Shown here: positions 279 to 54,119 of the stretch, one piece after another | How the letters are laid out: each line of letters opens with the position of its first letter | Numbering within the stretch: the first letter of the stretch is position 1 | Assembly: GCA_050183355.1 (NCBI GenBank) | Contig: JBFXBH010000003.1 | Coordinates: 15,131-79,130 of the forward strand | DNA length: 64,000 bases | DNA from: Vicinamibacterales bacterium | GTDB taxonomy: Bacteria > Acidobacteriota > Vicinamibacteria > Vicinamibacterales > UBA2999 | Reading direction: 5' to 3' | Made by a program: the position numbers and the translations under genes | The notes under the pieces: model-generated | Told to the model about the DNA's origin: nothing | Database searches by the model: none | Seen by the model: the letters and a program-made list of their open reading frames with translations, nothing else

Positions 279-1016
279 CTACTTCACCAGCGTGACAGGT
301 GCGACGTGCAGGCCGCACTCCGTCTTGTCGCGGCCCCGCCACCGGCCCGAGCGGATATCCTCTCCGGCGCCGATCGGCGACGTGCACGGCTCGCAGCCGA
401 TGCTCGGGTAGCCCTGGTCGTGCAGCGGGTTGTACGGGACGTCGTGTGCCTTGATGTAGGCCCACACCTCGTCGAGCGTCCAGGCCGCGAGCGGGTTGAT
501 CTTCACCAGCCCGAACGCCTGATCCCACTCCACGACCCTCGCGTGCTTCCGCGTCTCACTCTGCTCGCGGCGGATGCCGGTGATCCACGCCTGCCGGCTG
601 CCCAGTTCGCGCGTGAGCGGCACGACCTTGCGCGCGTGGCAGCACTTGTCCGGCTCGCGCTCCCAGAGGCGATCGATCTCGGGCGCGGTCGGGCCGGCGT
701 CGGGAATCAGGTCGGAGCGCAGCCCCTCGATGCTGAGCCCGTAGCGCTTCTCCAGCTTCGACCACAGCGCGTACGTCTCACGGAAGAGCACGGCGGTGTC
801 GATCGTCTTGATCGCGATGGGCAGCTTGTGCCGGCCGATCACGTCCACCAGCACGCAGTCCTCGGCGCCGAGCGCCGACAGACACACGAGCCCGTCTCCG
901 AAGCGGCCGGCCGCCCAGGTGAGCAGCTCCACCGGGCTCTGGGCCTCGAAGTCGTCGCGGCGGGCGTCGATGTCGGCTGGCAGCATGTCTCCTGCGTCTC
1001 CGTCAGCGGGCGGCAA
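279..1016 (-). CDS. cysH: adenylylsulfate (APS)/PAPS reductase, thioredoxin-dependent
   Basis: 245-aa ORF with the C-terminal KTECGLH motif of the CysH family. The CC pair (PDKCCHARKV) plus CEPC provide the Fe-S ligands typical of APS-type enzymes. It overlaps the thrC2 stop by 14 nt; an alternative ATG lies at 986. Confidence 0.9.
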   Translation of the reverse strand: MPPADGDAGDMLPADIDARRDDFEAQSPVELLTWAAGRFGDGLVCLSALGAEDCVLVDVIGRHKLPIAIKTIDTAVLFRETYALWSKLEKRYGLSIEGLRSDLIPDAGPTAPEIDRLWEREPDKCCHARKVVPLTRELGSRQAWITGIRREQSETRKHARVVEWDQAFGLVKINPLAAWTLDEVWAYIKAHDVPYNPLHDQGYPSIGCEPCTSPIGAGEDIRSGRWRGRDKTECGLHVAPVTLVK

Positions 1017-2247
1017 GGACGGGGGTGCCCGCCATCGCAGCTTCGAAGTCCTTCACGCCCTTGCCGATCTGAATCGATTCGGGCATCCGGTCGCGCATCA
1101 CGTCGGCCGTCTTGTAGCCGTTGCCCGTGATGACGACGACGATGGATTCATCCGGCCGGATCGTGCCGCGCGCGATCAGCTTCTTCGTGCAGGCGAGCGT
1201 GGTGCCGCCGGCAGGCTCCGTGAAGATGCCCTCCGTGTGCGCGAGCAGCTCGATGGCGTCGAGGATCTCGTCATCCGACGCCGCCATGCCGCTGCCGCCC
1301 GTGCGCTTCAGCGACGCGATCACCTGGAAGCCGTCCGCGGGGTTGCCGATCGCGAGCGACTTGGCGATCGTCTGCGGACGGACGGGTTCCGGGAAGTCGA
1401 GACCGGCCTCAAGCGCGTTGATCACCGGCGACGACCCGGCGGGCTGCGCGGCGTGAATCTTCGGCAGGTCGCCTTCGACCAGGCCCAGCTCCCGGAACTC
1501 CTCGAACCCGCGCAGGATGCGCGGGAGCAGCGTGCCGCCGGCGACCGGCGACACCAGGTGATCCGGGAAGCGCCAGCCGAGCTGCTCGGCCACCTCGAAG
1601 CCCATCGTCTTCGCGCCCTCCGCGTAGTAGCTGCGGAGGTTGATGTTCGCGAAGCCCCAGCCGTACCGATCCGCGAGCTGCGTGCACAGGCGGTTGACGT
1701 CGTCGTAGTTGCCGGCGACGGCGAAGACCTTGGGCCCGTAAATGGCCGACCCCAGGACCTTCGACGGCTCCAGGTCGTTCGGGATGAAGACCATGCACTC
1801 AAGGCCGAGCCTGGCCGCGTGCGACGACACGCTGTTCGCGAGGTTGCCCGTCGAGGCGCAGCCGAACACGGTGCAGCCGAACTCGACGGCCTTCGTCGCG
1901 GCCACCGAGACGACGCGGTCCTTGTAGGAGAACGTCGGGTGGTTCACCGAGTCGTCCTTGATGTAGAGCTCGCGGACGCCGAGCGCCTTCGCCAGGCGGT
2001 CCGCCTTCACCAGCGGCGTGAAGCCCGAGTTGAAGCCCGTCTTCGGCTCCTCGACCGGCAGCAGTTCGCGATACCGCCACAGCGAGTGCGGGCGCGACTC
2101 GATCAGCGCGCGCGTCACCACGCCCTTCATGGCTGCGTAGTCGTAGGTGACCTTCAGCGGACCCAGACAGTCGCTGCACACCCACGACGCCTCGGCGGGA
2201 TACCGCTTCCCGCAGAGGTGACACTCCAGACCTGTCACGAAGCTCAT
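1003..2247 (-). CDS. threonine-synthase-family PLP enzyme, second paralog (true substrate and product uncertain)
   Basis: 414 aa with an N-terminal Cys4 ribbon (CHLC...CSDC), the PLP-lysine motif HPTFSYKDR, and ASTGN and GNGYK motifs. It belongs to a different subfamily from the thrC at 3150-4373. Confidence 0.8.
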   Translation of the reverse strand: MSFVTGLECHLCGKRYPAEASWVCSDCLGPLKVTYDYAAMKGVVTRALIESRPHSLWRYRELLPVEEPKTGFNSGFTPLVKADRLAKALGVRELYIKDDSVNHPTFSYKDRVVSVAATKAVEFGCTVFGCASTGNLANSVSSHAARLGLECMVFIPNDLEPSKVLGSAIYGPKVFAVAGNYDDVNRLCTQLADRYGWGFANINLRSYYAEGAKTMGFEVAEQLGWRFPDHLVSPVAGGTLLPRILRGFEEFRELGLVEGDLPKIHAAQPAGSSPVINALEAGLDFPEPVRPQTIAKSLAIGNPADGFQVIASLKRTGGSGMAASDDEILDAIELLAHTEGIFTEPAGGTTLACTKKLIARGTIRPDESIVVVITGNGYKTADVMRDRMPESIQIGKGVKDFEAAMAGTPVLAAR

Positions 2248-2250
2248 CGT

Positions 2251-3156
2251 CTATCCTCTCGCTCCGGCCACCACGGTCTCCACCGCCAGCGGCTCGGCAC
2301 ACACGTCACGCACGGTCACGGGCGTCCCCGATGCCTTGTAGATTGCTTCCAGCTTGCGCGCGATGCGATCGCGCCCGGTCTCGGCGAACGCCACGATCGA
2401 CGGCCCCGCGCCGCTCAGGCACACGCCGAGCAGGTCCGGATCGTCCATCGCCAGCGCAGGCGCCAGTTCGGGAATCAGCGCCGCGCGCTGCGGCTGATGG
2501 AACCGGTCCTTCAGCGCCTCGCGCAGCGACCCGCCGTCACCCGTCGCCACGGCGTGCATCAGCCGGGCCACGCGCTGCAGGTTGAAGATCGCGTCCGCGC
2601 GCGAGTACGTCTGCGGCACGACCTTGCGCGCCTCCTTCGTCGCCAGCGGACGCGCCGGCGTCGCAATCAGCAGGCGGATCGACGCGGGCCACGCCAGCGC
2701 GGCCACGCTGACGCGGCCGTCCTCGTGCTCGAGCGCCGCCACCATCCCGCCGCGGATCGCCGCCGCCGCGTTGTCCGGATGCCCTTCGAGCGCCGTCGCG
2801 GCCGCGAGCAGGTCGTCGTCCGGCAGCGGCGCCACGACGTGCTCGAACAGCCGCAGCCCGGCCACGGTGGCCGCGGCGCTGCTGCCCATCCCGGAGCCGA
2901 TCGGAATCTCGCTCTCGATGTCGATGACGATCGACGGCAGCCCGGCCGGTGCGCGCGCCGCCAGCGAGCGATAGGCCCGCTCGACACCGTTCTCCGCCGG
3001 CACCGGTGGATTCGCGTGGCGCACGGTCACGCGGCCCTGTCCATCCGGCGTCTCGGAGACGAGCCGCACGCGCAGGTACACCTGCACGGCCACGGCGAGC
3101 GTGTCGAATCCGGGGCCGAGGTTGGCCACCGACGCCGGCACGGCGATGGTCAGCAC
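2251..3156 (-). CDS. thrB: homoserine kinase
   Basis: 301 aa with the N-terminal PASVANLGPGFD motif and the GHMP-kinase motif PIGSGMGSSAAA. Confidence 0.9.
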   Translation of the reverse strand: MLTIAVPASVANLGPGFDTLAVAVQVYLRVRLVSETPDGQGRVTVRHANPPVPAENGVERAYRSLAARAPAGLPSIVIDIESEIPIGSGMGSSAAATVAGLRLFEHVVAPLPDDDLLAAATALEGHPDNAAAAIRGGMVAALEHEDGRVSVAALAWPASIRLLIATPARPLATKEARKVVPQTYSRADAIFNLQRVARLMHAVATGDGGSLREALKDRFHQPQRAALIPELAPALAMDDPDLLGVCLSGAGPSIVAFAETGRDRIARKLEAIYKASGTPVTVRDVCAEPLAVETVVAGARG

Positions 3157-4373
3157 CCGCTCTCCACCCGCGCCCGCGCCGCTTCCGGCTCGGGCCTGGA
3201 CTCCGTGGTGCCGGGCTCCTTCAGCAGGTGGCCCGTCAGGATGCAGATGACCCGCTCCTGCTCGCCGATCCAGCCCGACGCCCGGAGCGACTTGACGCCG
3301 GCCAGCGCCGCCGCCGACCCGAGTTCGCAGCCGATGCCGTCACGCCCGATCACCTGTCGCGCCTCGGCGATCTCGTCGTCGGTCACGTCGATGGTCGTGC
3401 CGTTGGTCAGCTTCAGCGCGCGGACGGCCTTGCGCCACGACACCGGGGCGCCGATCCGGATCGCGGTCGCGATCGTCTTCGGGTCCTTGACCGGCGTCAG
3501 CTCCGACGCGCCGCTCCTCCACATCCGCACGAACGGGTTGGCGCCCTCGGCCTGAATGACCGCCACGCGCGGCAGCCGGTCGATGAGCCCCAGCGCCATC
3601 AGATCCTCGAGCGCGACGCCGACCGCCGACACGTTGCCGAGGTTGCCGCCGGGCAGCACGATCACGTCGGGCGCCTTCCAGCCCAGCTGCTCCATCAGCT
3701 CCACGGTGAACGTCTTCTGCCCCGCCACGCGGAACGGGTTGAGCGAGTTGAGGACGTACGTCCTCTCGTCCGCGCCCGCGAGCATGCCGGCCAGCGCGTC
3801 GTCGAAGTTGCCGCCGACCCGCACGAGCTCCGCGCCGTAGGCCTCGGCCTGTGCCACCTTCGCGGAGGCCACCGACTCGGGCAGGAACACGCGCGCCCTG
3901 AGCCCCGCGCGCACGGCGTAGGCGGCCATCGACGCCGCGGTGTTGCCCGTCGACGCGCACGCGACGAATGTCGCGCCACGCACGGCGGCGCGCGTGACGG
4001 CGGCCGTCATGCCGAGGTCCTTGAACGAGCCCGTCGGATTCCAGCCGAGGTGCTTGATGTAGAGGTCGTTGACGCCGGCGAAGCGGCCCGTCGCCAGCCC
4101 CTTCAGCACGGGCGTGTTGCCCTCGCCGAGCGTGACGATGTCGTTGACGCTCTCCGTGAGACCGGCCAGCAGCTCACGGAACCGCCACACGCCGCTTCGG
4201 TCCGCCGGCTCGATCGACGACCGCCGCTCCGACCAGAGCGCCCGCAGCTCGGCGGCCGACATGGCCGGGCGTTCCGGCACGAGCTCGAGCGGCGCGGCGC
4301 ATTCCGGGCACACGCGATCCTCGCGGAGGCGCGACGCCTCGACACCGCAGGGTTTGCTGCACCGCAACTGCAT
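3150..4373 (-). CDS. thrC: threonine synthase
   Basis: The track ORF 3150..4475 is trimmed to ATG 4373 (MQLRCSKPCG...), 2 nt after the hom stop. It has the motifs NPTGSFKDLGM, ASTGNTAAS and LPGGNLGN. Confidence 0.9.
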   Translation of the reverse strand: MQLRCSKPCGVEASRLREDRVCPECAAPLELVPERPAMSAAELRALWSERRSSIEPADRSGVWRFRELLAGLTESVNDIVTLGEGNTPVLKGLATGRFAGVNDLYIKHLGWNPTGSFKDLGMTAAVTRAAVRGATFVACASTGNTAASMAAYAVRAGLRARVFLPESVASAKVAQAEAYGAELVRVGGNFDDALAGMLAGADERTYVLNSLNPFRVAGQKTFTVELMEQLGWKAPDVIVLPGGNLGNVSAVGVALEDLMALGLIDRLPRVAVIQAEGANPFVRMWRSGASELTPVKDPKTIATAIRIGAPVSWRKAVRALKLTNGTTIDVTDDEIAEARQVIGRDGIGCELGSAAALAGVKSLRASGWIGEQERVICILTGHLLKEPGTTESRPEPEAARARVESGC

Positions 4374-4375
4374 GG

Positions 4376-5683
4376 TCACTCTCCAGGGAGCACGGGCATC
4401 ACGAGCACCGGCTCCGCATGGAAATCCTCCGCCTCGATCTCCCGCATCGCCCCGGCAAGCGCCGTCGCCTCGCACGGCTCCACCGTCACGACAAACGGCA
4501 GGTGGTCCTTCGGGAAGCCGGATTCCTGCAGCACGGCGTCCACGTTGATGCCGTGCCGCGCCAGCGCCACCGTGATCGACGCCAGGATCCCGGGCCGGTC
4601 CTTCACGCTGAAGCGCAGGTAGTAGGGCCGCGCCGGCGGGGCGGCCACCGGCGTCGGCGTCCAGGCGGGCTCCACGCCCGACCGGCCCTGCCGCGCGAGC
4701 GCGATGAGGTCCGAGACGACCGCCACGGCCGTCGGGTGTCCCCCGGCGCCCTGTCCGCTGAACGTCGTGTTCGCACCGAACCGTCCGGTCAGCGTGACCA
4801 GGTTCTGCGGGCCCGTGTTGCGCGCGTAGTTCGAGGCGTCCGGCACCAGCGCCGGGCCGACGAAGGCGCGCACGGCGCCGTCGGCGCCCAGCTCCGCCAT
4901 CGAGATCTGCCGGATCGTGCCGCCGAGCCGCTTCGCGTACCGGAAGTCGATCGCGTCGATGCGGCGGATGGAGCCGGTCGGAATGTCGGCCGTCCGGATG
5001 TAGCGCTTGAAGGCCACGCCCACGAGCACGGCGAGCTTCGCGGCCGCGTCATGACCGTCCAGGTCCGACGTCGGGTCCGCTTCGGCGAAGCCGAGCCGCT
5101 GCGCCTCGCCGAGGGCCTCACTCATCGAATCGCCGCCGGTCATCCGGCTGAGGATGTAGTTGCACGTGCCGTTCAGGATGCCGACGACGCGCGTGAACGT
5201 GTCGCCCGCGAGACCCGTGCGGACGGCGTCGATGATCGGCACGCCCCCGGCCACCGCCGCCTCGAAGCGCAGCCGCGCGCCGTTGGCCGCCGCGAGCGCG
5301 AGCAGTTCCGGCGCGTGGGCGGCCAGCAGCAGCTTGTTGGCCGTCACGACCGAGACGCCCTGCCGCAGCGCGGCGGAGACCCAGCCGTACGGGAGGTCGA
5401 CGCCACCCACCGTTTCCACGACGATGTCCGGCTTCAGCGCGAGCACGGCCGCCACGTCGTCCGTCCAGTTCACGGCCGGCGCCACCCAGCCCGCGCGCTT
5501 CTTCTCGACGTGCCGGTTGAAGATCGCCACGAGGGACAGTTCGGAGGCCAGCTCCGGCCGCTCGGTCAGGATGCGGACGACCGACTGTCCGACCGTGCCG
5601 AAGCCCAGCACCGCCACGCGCAGCGGGGCGGCCGCTGCGGGTGCGGCTGACGCCTGCCTGTCCTCTGTCGCCTCTCGTGCCAC
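4376..5683 (-). CDS. hom: homoserine dehydrogenase with C-terminal ACT domain
   Basis: 435 aa with the NAD-binding motif VAVLGFGTVGQ, the motifs ANK...AAVAGGVPII and GILNGTCNYIL, and an ACT-like C-terminus. GTG start preceded by GGAG. Confidence 0.9.
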   Translation of the reverse strand: MAREATEDRQASAAPAAAAPLRVAVLGFGTVGQSVVRILTERPELASELSLVAIFNRHVEKKRAGWVAPAVNWTDDVAAVLALKPDIVVETVGGVDLPYGWVSAALRQGVSVVTANKLLLAAHAPELLALAAANGARLRFEAAVAGGVPIIDAVRTGLAGDTFTRVVGILNGTCNYILSRMTGGDSMSEALGEAQRLGFAEADPTSDLDGHDAAAKLAVLVGVAFKRYIRTADIPTGSIRRIDAIDFRYAKRLGGTIRQISMAELGADGAVRAFVGPALVPDASNYARNTGPQNLVTLTGRFGANTTFSGQGAGGHPTAVAVVSDLIALARQGRSGVEPAWTPTPVAAPPARPYYLRFSVKDRPGILASITVALARHGINVDAVLQESGFPKDHLPFVVTVEPCEATALAGAMREIEAEDFHAEPVLVMPVLPGE

Positions 5684-5724
5684 GTCTGCTCCGAACTCTG
5701 TTCCGAATGCGCTGAAACCGCCCT

Positions 5725-5762
5725 AAAACAAAAAACCCGCCGGACGCTAGTTGGTCGGCGGG
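5725..5762 (-). terminator. intrinsic terminator, 42 nt upstream of the hom start (attenuator terminator)
   Basis: Minus strand: CCCGCCG (5762-5756), a 13-nt loop, CGGCGGG (5742-5736), then TTTTTTGTTTT (5735-5725). Confidence 0.8.
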
Positions 5763-5804
5763 CGGCTGGTCGGCGGGCTTGCTCTCCCGATGTTGGTTGC
5801 GTCC

Positions 5805-5939
5805 CTACTGCTGACCGGGAACGCCCCGGGGCCCGCTTCGACCTGCCGTCGGCATACACCGACAGGTACACCGGTGAATCGTGGTGCGCGTCCGCGTGGT
5901 CGTGGTGCTCCGGCCGAACATCGTGCTCCGATGGTACAC
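5805..5939 (-). CDS. threonine-rich leader peptide (44 aa from GTG 5939, or 38 aa from ATG 5921)
   Basis: Too short for the ORF track. SD AGGGAGG (5944-5950), a 4-nt spacer, then GTG. The peptide is MYHRSTMFGRSTTTTRTRTTIHRCTCRCMPTAGRSGPRGVPGQQ*. The codon run ACC ACG ACC ACG CGG ACG CGC ACC ACG ATT lies at 5906-5877. Confidence 0.65.
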   Translation of the reverse strand: MYHRSTMFGRSTTTTRTRTTIHRCTCRCMPTAGRSGPRGVPGQQ

Positions 5940-6047
5940 CGCGCCTCCCTGCACTGGCAAGCGCCCGGCGGGGCGCCGACCACCCGGAACCGCTTGTCAG
6001 CACACGGCTTACGCCGTCGGGCCGGGCCACGCGTGCGACAATCGGAC

Positions 6048-7340
6048 GTGCCCACGGACGCTCCGGTCGTCGCTCGCGTCACCCGGGCCCTCCGCCACCG
6101 CAACTACCGCCTCTTCTTCGGGGGTCAGTCCATCTCGCTGGCGGGAAGCTGGATCACCCGGATCGCCACGAGCTGGCTCGTCTACCGCCTCACCGGGTCC
6201 GAGCTGCTGCTGGGCGTCGTGGGCTTCTGCGGCCAGATTCCGGCGCTCGTCCTGACCCCGTTTGCGGGCGCGCTGGTGGACCGCGTCGATCGCCGTCAGG
6301 TGCTGCTCGTCGCGCAGTGGCTGTCCGCCGCGCAGTCCGCCGTGCTGGCCGTGCTCACGCTGACCGGGCGCATCACGATCACCGACCTCATCGTGCTGCA
6401 GCTGATCCAGGGCGCGGTCAACGCGTTCGAGATGCCGGCGCGGCAGTCGTTCGTCGTCGAGATGGTCGAGGACCGGCGCGACCTGTCGAACGCCATCGCG
6501 CTGAACTCGATGATGGTCAACGGCAGCCGCGTGCTGGGGCCGTCGATCGGCGGCGTGCTCATCGCGACGGTGGGCGAAGGGTGGTGCTTCGCCGTCGACG
6601 CCGTGAGCTACCTCGGCGTGATCTGGTCGCTGACCGCGATGCGCACCACCCCGGTGGCCCGGCGGGCGCCGGCCCCGGCGCTCGACCAGATCCGCGACGG
6701 CTGGCGCTACGTCCGCACGTCGGTGCCGATCCGGACGTGCCTCATGCTGGTGGCCATCGCCAGCGTGATGGGCATGCCGTACATGGTGCTGATGCCGGTG
6801 ATGGCGAAGGAGGTGCTCGGCGGCGGTCCCAACACGCTCGGGCTGCTGATGGCGTCGGTCGGCGCCGGCGCGCTGGCCTCGGGGCTCTACCTGGCGTCCC
6901 GCGCGTCGGTCCGCGGCCTGAGCCGCGTCATCCTGACGGGCACGGTGCTCTTCGGCGCGGGGTTGACGGGCTTCTCGTTCGCAGGGCATACAGGACTCGC
7001 CGCGGCGACGCTCGCCGTGTCGGGCATGGGGTTCATCTCGCAGATGGCATCGAGCAACACCGTGATTCAGACCGTCGTCGACGAACAGTTCCGCGGACGG
7101 GTGATGGGCTTCTACACGATGGCGATCGTCGGCACGATCCCGGTCGGGAGCCTGCTCGCGGGCGTCGTGGCCGAGCGGCTCGGCGCGCCGCTGACCATCC
7201 GGCTGGGCGGCCTCGTGTGCCTGGCCAGCGCGGTCTGGTTCGCGTTCCGGCTGCCCGAACTGCGGCGGCGCATCCGCGAGATCTACCAGCAGCAGGGCAT
7301 CGTGGCGGCAGACCACGTCGCCGCGGAGGCCGGACAGTGA
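6048..7340 (+). CDS. MFS transporter (EntS/MFS_3-like, 12 TM)
   Basis: The track ORF 5751..7340 is trimmed to GTG 6048 (VPTDAPVVARVTRALRHRNYRLFFGGQSISLAGSWI...). The N-terminal RNYRLFFxGQ motif is typical of this MFS family and the protein is hydrophobic throughout. Confidence 0.8.
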   Translation: MPTDAPVVARVTRALRHRNYRLFFGGQSISLAGSWITRIATSWLVYRLTGSELLLGVVGFCGQIPALVLTPFAGALVDRVDRRQVLLVAQWLSAAQSAVLAVLTLTGRITITDLIVLQLIQGAVNAFEMPARQSFVVEMVEDRRDLSNAIALNSMMVNGSRVLGPSIGGVLIATVGEGWCFAVDAVSYLGVIWSLTAMRTTPVARRAPAPALDQIRDGWRYVRTSVPIRTCLMLVAIASVMGMPYMVLMPVMAKEVLGGGPNTLGLLMASVGAGALASGLYLASRASVRGLSRVILTGTVLFGAGLTGFSFAGHTGLAAATLAVSGMGFISQMASSNTVIQTVVDEQFRGRVMGFYTMAIVGTIPVGSLLAGVVAERLGAPLTIRLGGLVCLASAVWFAFRLPELRRRIREIYQQQGIVAADHVAAEAGQ

Positions 7341-8536: not shown

Positions 8537-8625
8537 GCCTGAGTGGCGGAACTGGCAGACGCAGGAGACTCAAAATCTCCCACCGGTCACCCGGTGTGTG
8601 GGTTCGATTCCCTCCTCAGGCACCA
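8537..8625 (+). tRNA. tRNA-Leu (anticodon CAA), encoded CCA
   Basis: Acceptor stem GCCTGAG/CTCAGGC; anticodon stem GGAGA/TCTCC with loop CTCAAAA; long variable arm CACCGGtcacCCGGTG; T-loop TTCGATT with one U-U mismatch in the T-stem; ACCA at the 3' end. Confidence 0.85.
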
Positions 8626-8634
8626 CCTTCACGC

Positions 8635-9141
8635 ATGACGACATCATTCGAACCCCTCCGCGACCTCGCGCACCTGGAATCGCTCATCGCCGGCTCGTTC
8701 GATCGGCCGCTGCTGATCTTCAAGCACAGCCGGAGCTGCGGGACATCGCACGTCGCGCGGGAGGAACTGCTCGCGCATCTCGCGGACGCACCGCGTGACG
8801 CCACCTACGTGATGCTGACCGTCCAGGAGCAGCGCGACCTCTCGGACGCGATCGCCCGGCACTTCTCGCTGCGCCACGAGACGCCGCAGGCGCTGGTCGT
8901 GCGGGACGGCACGGTCGCGTGGAGCGGGTCGCACTTCCGCGTCAGGGCCGGCGCCGTCGGCGCCGCGATTGACGCCGCCGCGGCGGACCCCGCCGCCGAC
9001 TGTGCCGGATTTCTGGCCGGGGCGATGGCGGCACAGCGCGCCGCCATCGCCCGCCCGGCCACCCAGCCTGACGACCACGCCCACTGGAAGTTGAATCCGC
9101 CCAGCCGGCCGTCGACGTCCAGGATCTCGCCCGCGAGATAG
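8635..9141 (+). CDS. YtxJ-like monothiol thioredoxin-fold protein (DUF2847 / bacillithiol-system type)
   Basis: ATG 8635 within track ORF 7777..9141. Sequence MTTSFEPLRDLAHLESLI...LLIFKHSRSCGTSH...ETPQALVVRDG. The domain ends near 8975, and the remaining 55 codons are antisense to the neighbouring gene. Confidence 0.6.
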   Translation: MTTSFEPLRDLAHLESLIAGSFDRPLLIFKHSRSCGTSHVAREELLAHLADAPRDATYVMLTVQEQRDLSDAIARHFSLRHETPQALVVRDGTVAWSGSHFRVRAGAVGAAIDAAAADPAADCAGFLAGAMAAQRAAIARPATQPDDHAHWKLNPPSRPSTSRISPAR

Positions 9142-53929: not shown

Positions 53930-54119
53930 GCACTGGTCCGCGCCTGCTTCGAAGTTGTGGCCAGGGCGCGCGCGACGCCGGACCGCGATCGGCGCCGCGC
54001 GCCGACGGCGCGATCGCCACGCGATGCACGCCGACGAAATCGTCGAATCGCGAAAAATACATCCCCACTAATGTTGCTGTCGCGATCGCGCGAAACCTTT
54101 GATACTGGCCGCACATCAC

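Follow-up and report, generated by a model that had tools for sequence, protein, structure and literature searches.

The window analysed here, a stretch of 64,000 nucleotides from contig JBFXBH010000003.1 of a Vicinamibacterales bacterium (Acidobacteriota), carries on its minus strand a threonine biosynthesis operon, and the subject of this work is the leader region upstream of its first gene. The operon hom-thrC-thrB-thrC2-cysH (5683..279) consists of hom (5683-4376), thrC (4373-3150), thrB (3156-2251), a second thrC designated thrC2 (2247-1003), and cysH (1016-279). Families were assigned by NCBIfam and the junctions were checked; they are +2, −7, and +3 nt, an overlap, and +4 nt, the last one leading to another open reading frame (ORF) 4 nt after cysH. 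The tight gene packing through cysH, described in an initial annotation of this DNA, is thus real. The GTG start of hom (5683-5681) and its ribosome-binding site GGAG (5692-5689) were read in the sequence, and TTCGGAGCA(G/T)ACGTG at this start was kept in L001 and L002 (L-numbered labels denote the hom loci of relatives). On the other side of the leader, a divergent gene of an MFS transporter (NCBIfam) starts near position 6048. The closest genome records were metagenome-assembled genomes of Vicinamibacterales, those of L001 and L002, with Hom identities of 94% and 90%, respectively. A metagenome scan with Hom gave no relative closer than 62%, and a protein search retrieved many more Hom proteins with identities of 63–95%.

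The minus strand was read over 5600-6200, and every element listed in the initial annotation was found in its place. One of them is an intrinsic terminator. Its hairpin (5763..5736) has a 5' arm at 5763-5753, hereafter C2, and a 3' arm at 5744-5736 with the core CGGCGGG at 5742-5736, and the predicted free energy is −17.1 kcal/mol. The U-tract UUUUUUGUUUU (U6GU4; 5735..5725) follows directly and ends 41 nt before the hom start at 5683. Since the gene upstream is divergent, this terminator is not the 3' end of another gene. On both strands of the 64 kb it was the sole hairpin with dG ≤ −12 next to a U-tract, and its U6 (5730-5735) was the only A/T run of at least 6 nt. In an alignment of 12 orthologs, 97.2% of cells in the terminator helix were paired vs. 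24–52% in slid controls. The canonical terminator of the initial annotation is confirmed. A/T runs of at least 5 nt are themselves scarce in the window, with just two of them, at 5730-5735 and 54053-54057. Ordinary gene ends in this stretch presumably use other termination signals.

Upstream of the terminator lies a leader ORF (5921..5805) of 38 codons followed by TAG (5807-5805), with the peptide MFGRSTTTTRTRTTIHRCTCRCMPTAGRSGPRGVPGQQ* as read in the sequence; from the side of an alternative GTG start, the same frame reads (V)YHRST-MFGRSTTTTRTRTTIHRCTCRCMPTAGRSGPRGVPGQQ*. Codons 6–15 of the ORF (5906..5877) are ACC ACG ACC ACG CGG ACG CGC ACC ACG ATT and encode the run TTTTRTRTTI, in which we count 7 Thr, 2 Arg, and 1 Ile instead of the 6 Thr reported initially. 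At least 6 Thr per 10 codons were found in 11 of 111,349 stop-free 10-codon segments (1e-4), at six places in the six frames of the 64 kb. Only two segments contained at least 7, both of them inside the leader ORF.

Comparison with relatives showed that codon composition, rather than the peptide itself, is retained. The leader ATG was invariant in the 12 aligned orthologs. In close orthologs, insertions and deletions in the ORF were multiples of 3 and the stop codon occupied the same alignment column, and in 7 of 9 close leaders the ORF length was 38–39 codons. Over 17 leaders, Thr accounted for 114 of 619 in-frame codons (18%) vs. 10 (1.6%) and 30 (4.8%) in the other two frames, and the N-terminal half was Thr-rich in 15 of the 17. 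The Thr codons were ACC/ACG in Vicinamibacterales and ACA in Terriglobales; this difference between lineages argues for selection on codon reading and not on one nucleotide motif. Beyond codon composition, the peptide sequence was poorly conserved. The beginnings of the leader peptides were compared for the window (MFGRSTTTTRTRTTIHRCTCRC...), L001 (MFGRSTKATRTLTTGHRCACRC...), L002 (MFSVIATTTTGCRTARPTRACWC...), L162 (MNGPTRTTTGSITRRTTCACWC...), L163 (MFGSETATTGTSAMRRTCACC...), L168 (MPGLDTTTIAGTSTGCRMCACC...), L170 (MFCTTSGTMTDTQTSTQVMPPCPCW...), and L174 (MSRTSAYLVTRTSTRPHRRTAMCACRC...).

The leader is preceded by a sigma70-like promoter with the −35 hexamer TTGCCA (5960..5955) and the −10 hexamer TACCAT (5936..5931) separated by an 18-nt spacer. 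It was the only such site in 5000-7000, with 0.0 sites expected from shuffled sequences. Both hexamers were conserved among the orthologs amid drifting flanks: CTTGC was retained upstream in 12 of 12 aligned orthologs and the −10 box was retained as TA(C/G/A)CAT or AACAAT in the same 12, while GGTGTACCAT was invariant across the window, L001, and L002. The distance from the −10 box to the leader ATG was 8–11 nt in all 17 leaders and 9 nt in the window. This spacing points to a transcription start site near A5924, a 5' untranslated region of 0–5 nt, and translation without a Shine-Dalgarno (SD) sequence; the leader ORF would then be nearly leaderless, and the transcript would begin with ATG 5921 or no more than ~3 nt before it.

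As the start of the ORF, the initial annotation had preferred GTG 5939 with the strong SD AGGGAGG (5950-5944), giving ATG 5921 as a second option. The second option was retained. GTG 5939 (5939-5937) sits in the spacer/−10 region of the conserved promoter, and in L002, where 10 nt instead of 9 separate the −10 box from the ATG, it is out of frame with the Thr run, so ATG 5921 was taken as the start codon; in L001 the supposed SD reads GGGGACC. GGAG (5929-5926) in front of ATG 5921 was likewise not relied upon as an SD sequence, because it is seen in the window only and is replaced by UGGU in L001 and CUCU in L002. The GTG start of the MFS gene on the plus strand (~6048; region 6035-6050) has GACAAT 5 nt upstream and may be leaderless too. 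Further upstream of the leader, ~20–50 nt before the −35 hexamer, we found a conserved block TAAGCC-N13-GGTTCCGGG (6010..5982, minus strand), whose membership in the element is uncertain. It was kept in the window, L001, L002, and L162-L169 and was recognisable in L170, whose upstream gene is not an MFS transporter. A regulator of the hom promoter may bind to this block.

A near-copy of the terminator 3' arm, GGUCGAAGCGGGC (5843..5831), hereafter region 2 (R2), is located inside the leader ORF at codons 27–31 and is the putative 5' strand of an antiterminator. Its sequence GGUCGAAGCGGG (5843-5832) is complementary, with a 2-nt bulge, to CCCGCCGACC of the terminator 5' arm. The calculated energy of the R2:C2 duplex was −21.5 kcal/mol. 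In the 12 orthologs, 91.7% of cells of this helix were paired (20–67% with a slid partner), and the GGU and GCG columns of R2 were invariant at a mean column identity of 57% for the alignment.

Between the Thr run and R2, two overlapping hairpins can be drawn. The one described initially as the 1:2 hairpin, a candidate anti-antiterminator (5867..5841), pairs ACCUGUCG (5867-5860) with CGGCAGGU (5848-5841) over 8 bp; its energy was −11.5 kcal/mol, and an extended form of −17.8 kcal/mol was the local minimum free energy (MFE) structure of 5880-5828. In the orthologs, 80.2% of its cells were paired vs. 26–60% in slid controls, but no compensatory change was found, and the RNAalifold consensus of the 12 orthologs consisted of the terminator and the other, overlapping hairpin, H1 (GGUGUACC/GGUGUAUG; 5872..5853). 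H1 contains the Cys codons UGU at 5870-68, 5864-62, and 5858-56. Its pairing was retained via G-C/G-U/A-U changes and is weak in the window (−3.7 kcal/mol). Two further pairings were rejected: the local MFE hairpin GUCGGU/GCCGAC (5863-5848) was window-specific and not conserved, and UCCCGGU/AUCGGGA was unsupported in orthologs. Around the leader stop codon, the hairpin GCGUUCC/GGGACGC (5824..5799; −10.3 kcal/mol) had 7 of 7 pairs retained in the window, L001, and L002, one of which varied as U.G, U-A, and C-G.

To determine the distribution of this arrangement, we surveyed 150 hom loci whose upstream DNA spans at least 150 nt. An intrinsic terminator upstream of hom was carried by 15 of them, all belonging to Acidobacteriota, and by none of the ~110 loci of Actinomycetota and others in the survey. 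All 15 terminator-bearing loci had an ORF ending 53–83 nt before the U-tract. Close Hom homologs added 15 more loci with 9 distinct leaders; the terminator was present in 15 of 15 and the leader ORF was intact in all but L169. Overall, the same layout was found upstream of hom, once of ask-hom, in 23 further distinct leaders from two classes of Acidobacteriota, Vicinamibacteria and Terriglobia. In 10 distinct orthologous leaders of Vicinamibacterales, the ATG-frame ORF, Thr enrichment, a G-rich mimic of the 3' arm, and the terminator occurred together. This comparative evidence supports the classical-type attenuator proposed in the initial annotation. Of the features expected there to co-occur and co-vary in related genomes, the Thr-run ORF and the terminator were found together, but the tandem arrangement of CCCGCCGACC did not generally accompany them and covariation was not seen.

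More distant Vicinamibacterales (L083, L109, L093, L010, and L003) had short leaders mixing Thr, Ile, Met, and Cys codons. The leader of Terriglobales, M..VISTTTRTRVFTSTRTSISGGRR.GN.S*, was sequence-unrelated and had its own terminator. In L025 it precedes ask-hom, which fits control of the aspartate-family pathway. In most leader-bearing Terriglobales (L011 at ~4895-4960, L013, L015, L102, and L103), the terminator is separated from hom by an 18-codon mini-ORF, MIVIKPKSSSLALQAEVG*, preceded by a GGAGG of its own. The stop codon of the mini-ORF overlaps the hom ATG, and the mini-ORF resembles the fused N- and C-terminal ends of an aspartokinase; in L025 (3534-4973), an intact ask (MIVMKFGGTSVEDE...AEVG*) occupies the position of the mini-ORF behind the leader. 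A match to the Acido-Lenti-1 RNA (RF01687) was also seen in L011 on the minus strand (8611-8665), just downstream of thrB, with 38.7 bits vs. a gathering score of 37.

We interpret the leader as a probable ribosome-mediated (leader-peptide) transcription attenuator of hom-thrC-thrB-thrC2-cysH and put the probability of this reading, which was built from sequence comparison and modelling, at roughly 80%. Transcription would start ~7 nt after TACCAT, placing ATG 5921 at or near the 5' end, and a ribosome would translate the 38-codon ORF through the Thr run. If charged tRNA-Thr is scarce, the ribosome would stall in this run while the RNA polymerase moves ahead; R2, left free, could capture the terminator 5' arm before the 3' arm exists, and read-through into hom would result. 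If Thr is plentiful, the ribosome would trail the polymerase through R2 to the stop codon (5807-5805) and unwind R2 on its way. Located at the stop codon, it would sit between R2 and the 5' arm, so that the terminator could form and transcription would end 41 nt before hom. Either of the hairpins just after the Thr run (5872-5853 and 5867-5841) may act as a pause hairpin or an anti-antiterminator.

Folding of the full transcript at equilibrium, with the ribosome introduced as a mask, gave the terminator in nearly all ribosome states. Equilibrium dominance of the terminator is usual for attenuators, which are kinetically controlled. Since equilibrium folding was uninformative in this respect, nascent-RNA models were used instead, in which the free energy holding the terminator 5' arm was calculated for the RNA 3' of the ribosome before the 3' arm is transcribed. 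In 20 of 22 modelled relatives, the arm was held by ~8–19 kcal/mol with the A site at codon 1 to ~25, an interval that spans the Thr run as well as the Cys block, and the hold dropped to 0–5.5 kcal/mol as the ribosome passed R2 to the stop codon. The exceptions were L001, with a weaker hold, and the truncated first ORF of L169. As a control, the upstream RNA was dinucleotide-shuffled 200 times in 11 relatives. The energetic switch exceeded the shuffles in 5 of them, namely, L170 (1 of 200 as high), L174 (2), L011 (0), L014 (0), and L102 (2), and was marginal in L162 (11 of 200). As stand-alone proof the energetic switch was rejected, as it was significant solely in L170, L174, and Terriglobales besides the marginal case of L162.

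Several observations weigh against this interpretation. The prevalence of the terminator at equilibrium makes the proposed switch dependent on kinetics. The high-GC close relatives L002, L164, and L168 did no better than their shuffles (31–72 of 200); in high-GC leaders, a shuffled G-rich upstream sequence already sequesters the C-rich arm by 5–9 kcal. R2 precedes the stop codon by 24–38 nt and is left uncovered by a ribosome at that codon; the model therefore has to assume that pairing across a ribosome is excluded. No compensatory double changes were found in the terminator, R2:C2, or 1:2 helices of the 12 orthologs. The paired segments are nearly invariant, which accounts for the lack of covariation and also makes the shuffle controls for covariation uninformative. 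The stability of the leader as a whole did not exceed that of shuffled sequences (z = −0.68), and the signal therefore resides in specific elements and not in overall folding energy. Among the relatives, L169 (1222-1415) has a TAA after 12 codons and has lost the Thr run; an ATG right after this TAA opens a second ORF, MRSCACWCVSRGG..., and L169 still has the Cys block, R2, and the terminator. The Thr run is also weak in L171-L173 (1272-1476), with 3 Thr along with 5 Cys and 2 internal Met. In these three loci the stop codon stands directly before R2, which is the classical geometry, whereas the ORF in the clade of the window runs ~8 codons past R2.

The window itself is a further unfavourable case because of a tandem copy of the arm. 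CCCGCCGACC occurs in it twice, both times perfectly, at 5777-5768 (C1) and at 5762-5753. R2 pairs equally well with C1 (−23.5 kcal/mol), which emerges first in transcription. In the nascent-RNA model of the window, C2 was held by just 2–4 kcal/mol at all ribosome positions, and its protection was below that of 183 of 200 shuffles; we attribute this to the tandem copy. Deletion of C1 in silico restored the profile, with 8–14 falling to 5.5 kcal/mol. L001, where C1 is truncated, was intermediate, with 4.5–9 falling to 1.1 kcal/mol. C1 was present in the window and L163, and 9 of the 12 aligned orthologs lacked it. L163 has a degenerate downstream copy; there, the terminator arm is formed by C1 (−27.8 kcal/mol), and the energy profile is classical. 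With the ribosome on codons 13–15, the MFE structure of the window was two-tiered, with GUCGGUG (5863-5857):CGCCGAC (5761-5755) stacked on R2:C1, and this additional pairing was worth merely ~2 kcal. The tandem repeat noticed in the initial annotation is thus real, but its proposed help in the 2:3 pairing was not borne out: it is lineage-specific, modelled to undermine the antiterminator, and was rejected as a required part of the mechanism since it is missing in those 9 orthologs. The extra copy is predicted to act as a decoy that soaks up R2 and frees the terminator arm, and the switch of this genome is predicted to be weak. The attenuator of the window may be either termination-prone or rescued by kinetics.

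A broader form of attenuation, in which the ribosome would sense Cys through a C-x-C-x-C block (codons 18–22), and Met and Ile in relatives, alongside Thr, is possible, though of low probability. In 16 hom leaders of Vicinamibacterales, Cys made up 9.0% of 522 codons vs. a six-frame background of 2.6%. A C-x-C(-x-C) block was found in 15 of the 16, including the low-GC L003 (CTCC) and L171 (5 Cys, 3 Thr), and persists where H1 is lacking (L171) or not evident (L003). L169, which lost the Thr half, retains an ORF beginning MRSCACWC. The Cys codons fall within the zone where a stalled ribosome leaves R2 free, the operon includes cysH in the window, L001, L002, and L003, and Met, Ile, and Thr codons abound in the short leaders of relatives (L093, MITMRAMCTRMRSCR; L010, MTGITT..MSTMM). 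However, the central UGU(C/U)GG is a conserved RNA motif (core CUGUYGG) within H1 and within region 1 of the initial annotation, and the presence of the Cys codons might simply follow from RNA structure. The leaders of Terriglobales are mostly without Cys, and L083 has a C-G-M-C block with no cysH seen in its 5.9-kb locus. At least 3 Cys occur in ~1 of 1,500 segments of 5 codons, and the evidence from the window by itself is therefore not conclusive. Equally doubtful is the more elaborate version in which this multivalent sensing of Thr and Cys (Met and Ile in relatives) is combined with an evolvable decoy, in that the presence of one or two units of the terminator 5' arm (CCCGCCGACC) would set inducibility. 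If true, homoserine/threonine synthesis and cysH-dependent sulfur assimilation would be tied to the supply of both Thr and sulfur amino acids.

We consider a ribosome-independent regulation of the terminator improbable, for example by an RNA-binding protein, a small-molecule riboswitch, or a sensor of uncharged tRNA, with the short ORF being incidental to a high-GC sequence poor in stop codons. In its favour, the conserved blocks CCUGUYGG, GGU..GCGG, and ACAUCGGGA need not code, a conserved SD sequence is absent, and a GC content of 71% makes long stop-free frames a frequent occurrence. Such regulation would leave the frame-specific enrichment of Thr (114 vs. 10 and 30), which persists across the ACC/ACG and ACA lineages, without a cause, and the same holds for the invariant ATG, the in-frame indels, and the conserved ORF length and stop codon. 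The enriched amino acid is moreover the product of the operon itself, and no riboswitch or T-box of Rfam matched the leader even at E ≤ 10.

Still less probable is an independent small gene or small RNA (sRNA) with its own terminator, hom being transcribed from a separate promoter. Promoter, ORF, and terminator do form a self-contained unit of ~200 nt, and attenuator-derived sRNAs and leader peptides with roles in trans are exemplified by rnTrpL/peTrpL of Sinorhizobium (PMC7298713). However, no promoter-like site was found in the 41 nt from the U-tract to the hom start, the unit was always located directly upstream of hom or ask-hom, and the peptide is poorly conserved besides its codon composition. 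Finally, a Thr-rich frame beside a terminator by chance, conceivable in a high-GC genome rich in ACC/ACG where six places in 64 kb reach at least 6 Thr per 10 codons, has a negligible probability, as such a run is expected ~0.02 times in the three frames of a ~200-nt leader, the terminator is unique, and recurrence in two classes of Acidobacteriota effectively refutes it.

The leader-peptide attenuator that we favour resembles the enterobacterial thrL attenuator in its short Thr-rich ORF with some Ile directly upstream of genes for Thr biosynthesis, in the intrinsic terminator between this ORF and the first structural gene, in the upstream segment able to pair with the terminator 5' arm, and in the predicted logic, by which stalling leads to read-through. 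It differs in having no sequence or structure similarity to thrL, with no RF00506 match at E ≤ 10. The thrL leader is 21 codons long, whereas the ORF of the window has 38 codons, lacks a conserved SD sequence, and has its ATG 9 nt from the −10 box. In the window, the first gene is a monofunctional hom and not thrA, the operon additionally contains a second thrC and cysH, the leader contains a Cys block, and ~25 nt separate the antiterminator strand from the leader stop codon downstream of it. The two genes of the threonine-synthase family (3150-4373 and 1003-2247) stand in one operon. An extra threonine-synthase copy between hom and thrB was seen only in the clade of the window (window, L001-L003, and L161-L175), and in more distant Vicinamibacterales the gene order is hom-thrB-thrC. 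The extra copy scored 260 bits vs. a PRK08197 cut-off of 303, and its function may differ.

Work of Vitreschak and colleagues from 2004 is said to have predicted that thrA attenuators of Pasteurellales sense Thr, Ile, and Met. The mixed codons for end products of the aspartate/homoserine branch in L093, L010, and L003 are similar to these, although the Pasteurellales leaders are proteobacterial and SD-dependent, and we know of no Cys block reported in them. Polycysteine leaderless short ORFs of mycobacteria, which reportedly control Cys-related operons (Canestrari and co-workers, 2020), are comparable with the leader ORF, itself predicted to be nearly leaderless, and likewise have clustered Cys codons upstream of sulfur/Cys genes. 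To our knowledge they act without a canonical intrinsic terminator, whereas in the window a strong terminator is present and Cys is secondary to the Thr run. In Deinococcus deserti, where transcription start sites were mapped, a role in attenuation has been predicted for leaderless leader peptides (PMC4007540), and classical attenuators have been predicted in Actinobacteria in a survey that detected no regulatory RNA structures at threonine operons (PMC1262725). Both groups share with the window a leader rich in the cognate residue upstream of genes for amino-acid biosynthesis or tRNA synthetases. They belong to other phyla, and the start site of the window was placed by promoter spacing while those of D. 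deserti were mapped.

No Rfam family, including Thr_leader (RF00506), T-box, and riboswitches, overlapped the leader when the window was scanned at the gathering score or the region 5500-6300 at E ≤ 10, and at E ≤ 1 nothing overlapped the leaders of L002, L011, L010, L083, and L003. Leader-peptide attenuation is textbook knowledge for Proteobacteria and has been predicted in Firmicutes too. Our literature searches, which did not extend to comparative attenuation surveys in subscription journals, found no description of a leader-peptide, attenuation, or terminator element of this kind in Acidobacteria, and the remark on novelty in the initial annotation is consistent with this result. According to a survey of 2010, the attenuators predicted in Acidobacteria were almost entirely without an assigned function (PMC2965389). 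The leader most likely represents a familiar mechanism, of the type of the textbook E. coli thr attenuator, in a phylum for which we found no earlier report of it.

Occurring in two classes and being absent from Rfam, the element is a good candidate for a new RNA family in Acidobacteriota, an abundant and poorly studied soil phylum, and would be of use as a marker when hom/thr operons of metagenome-assembled genomes are annotated. The single canonical terminator in 64 kb is, in our reading, a regulatory one; these bacteria may thus keep terminators of the hairpin-plus-U-tract type for attenuation. How attenuators evolve could be tested through the putatively near-leaderless ORF, the Cys block, and the differing copy number of the terminator arm.

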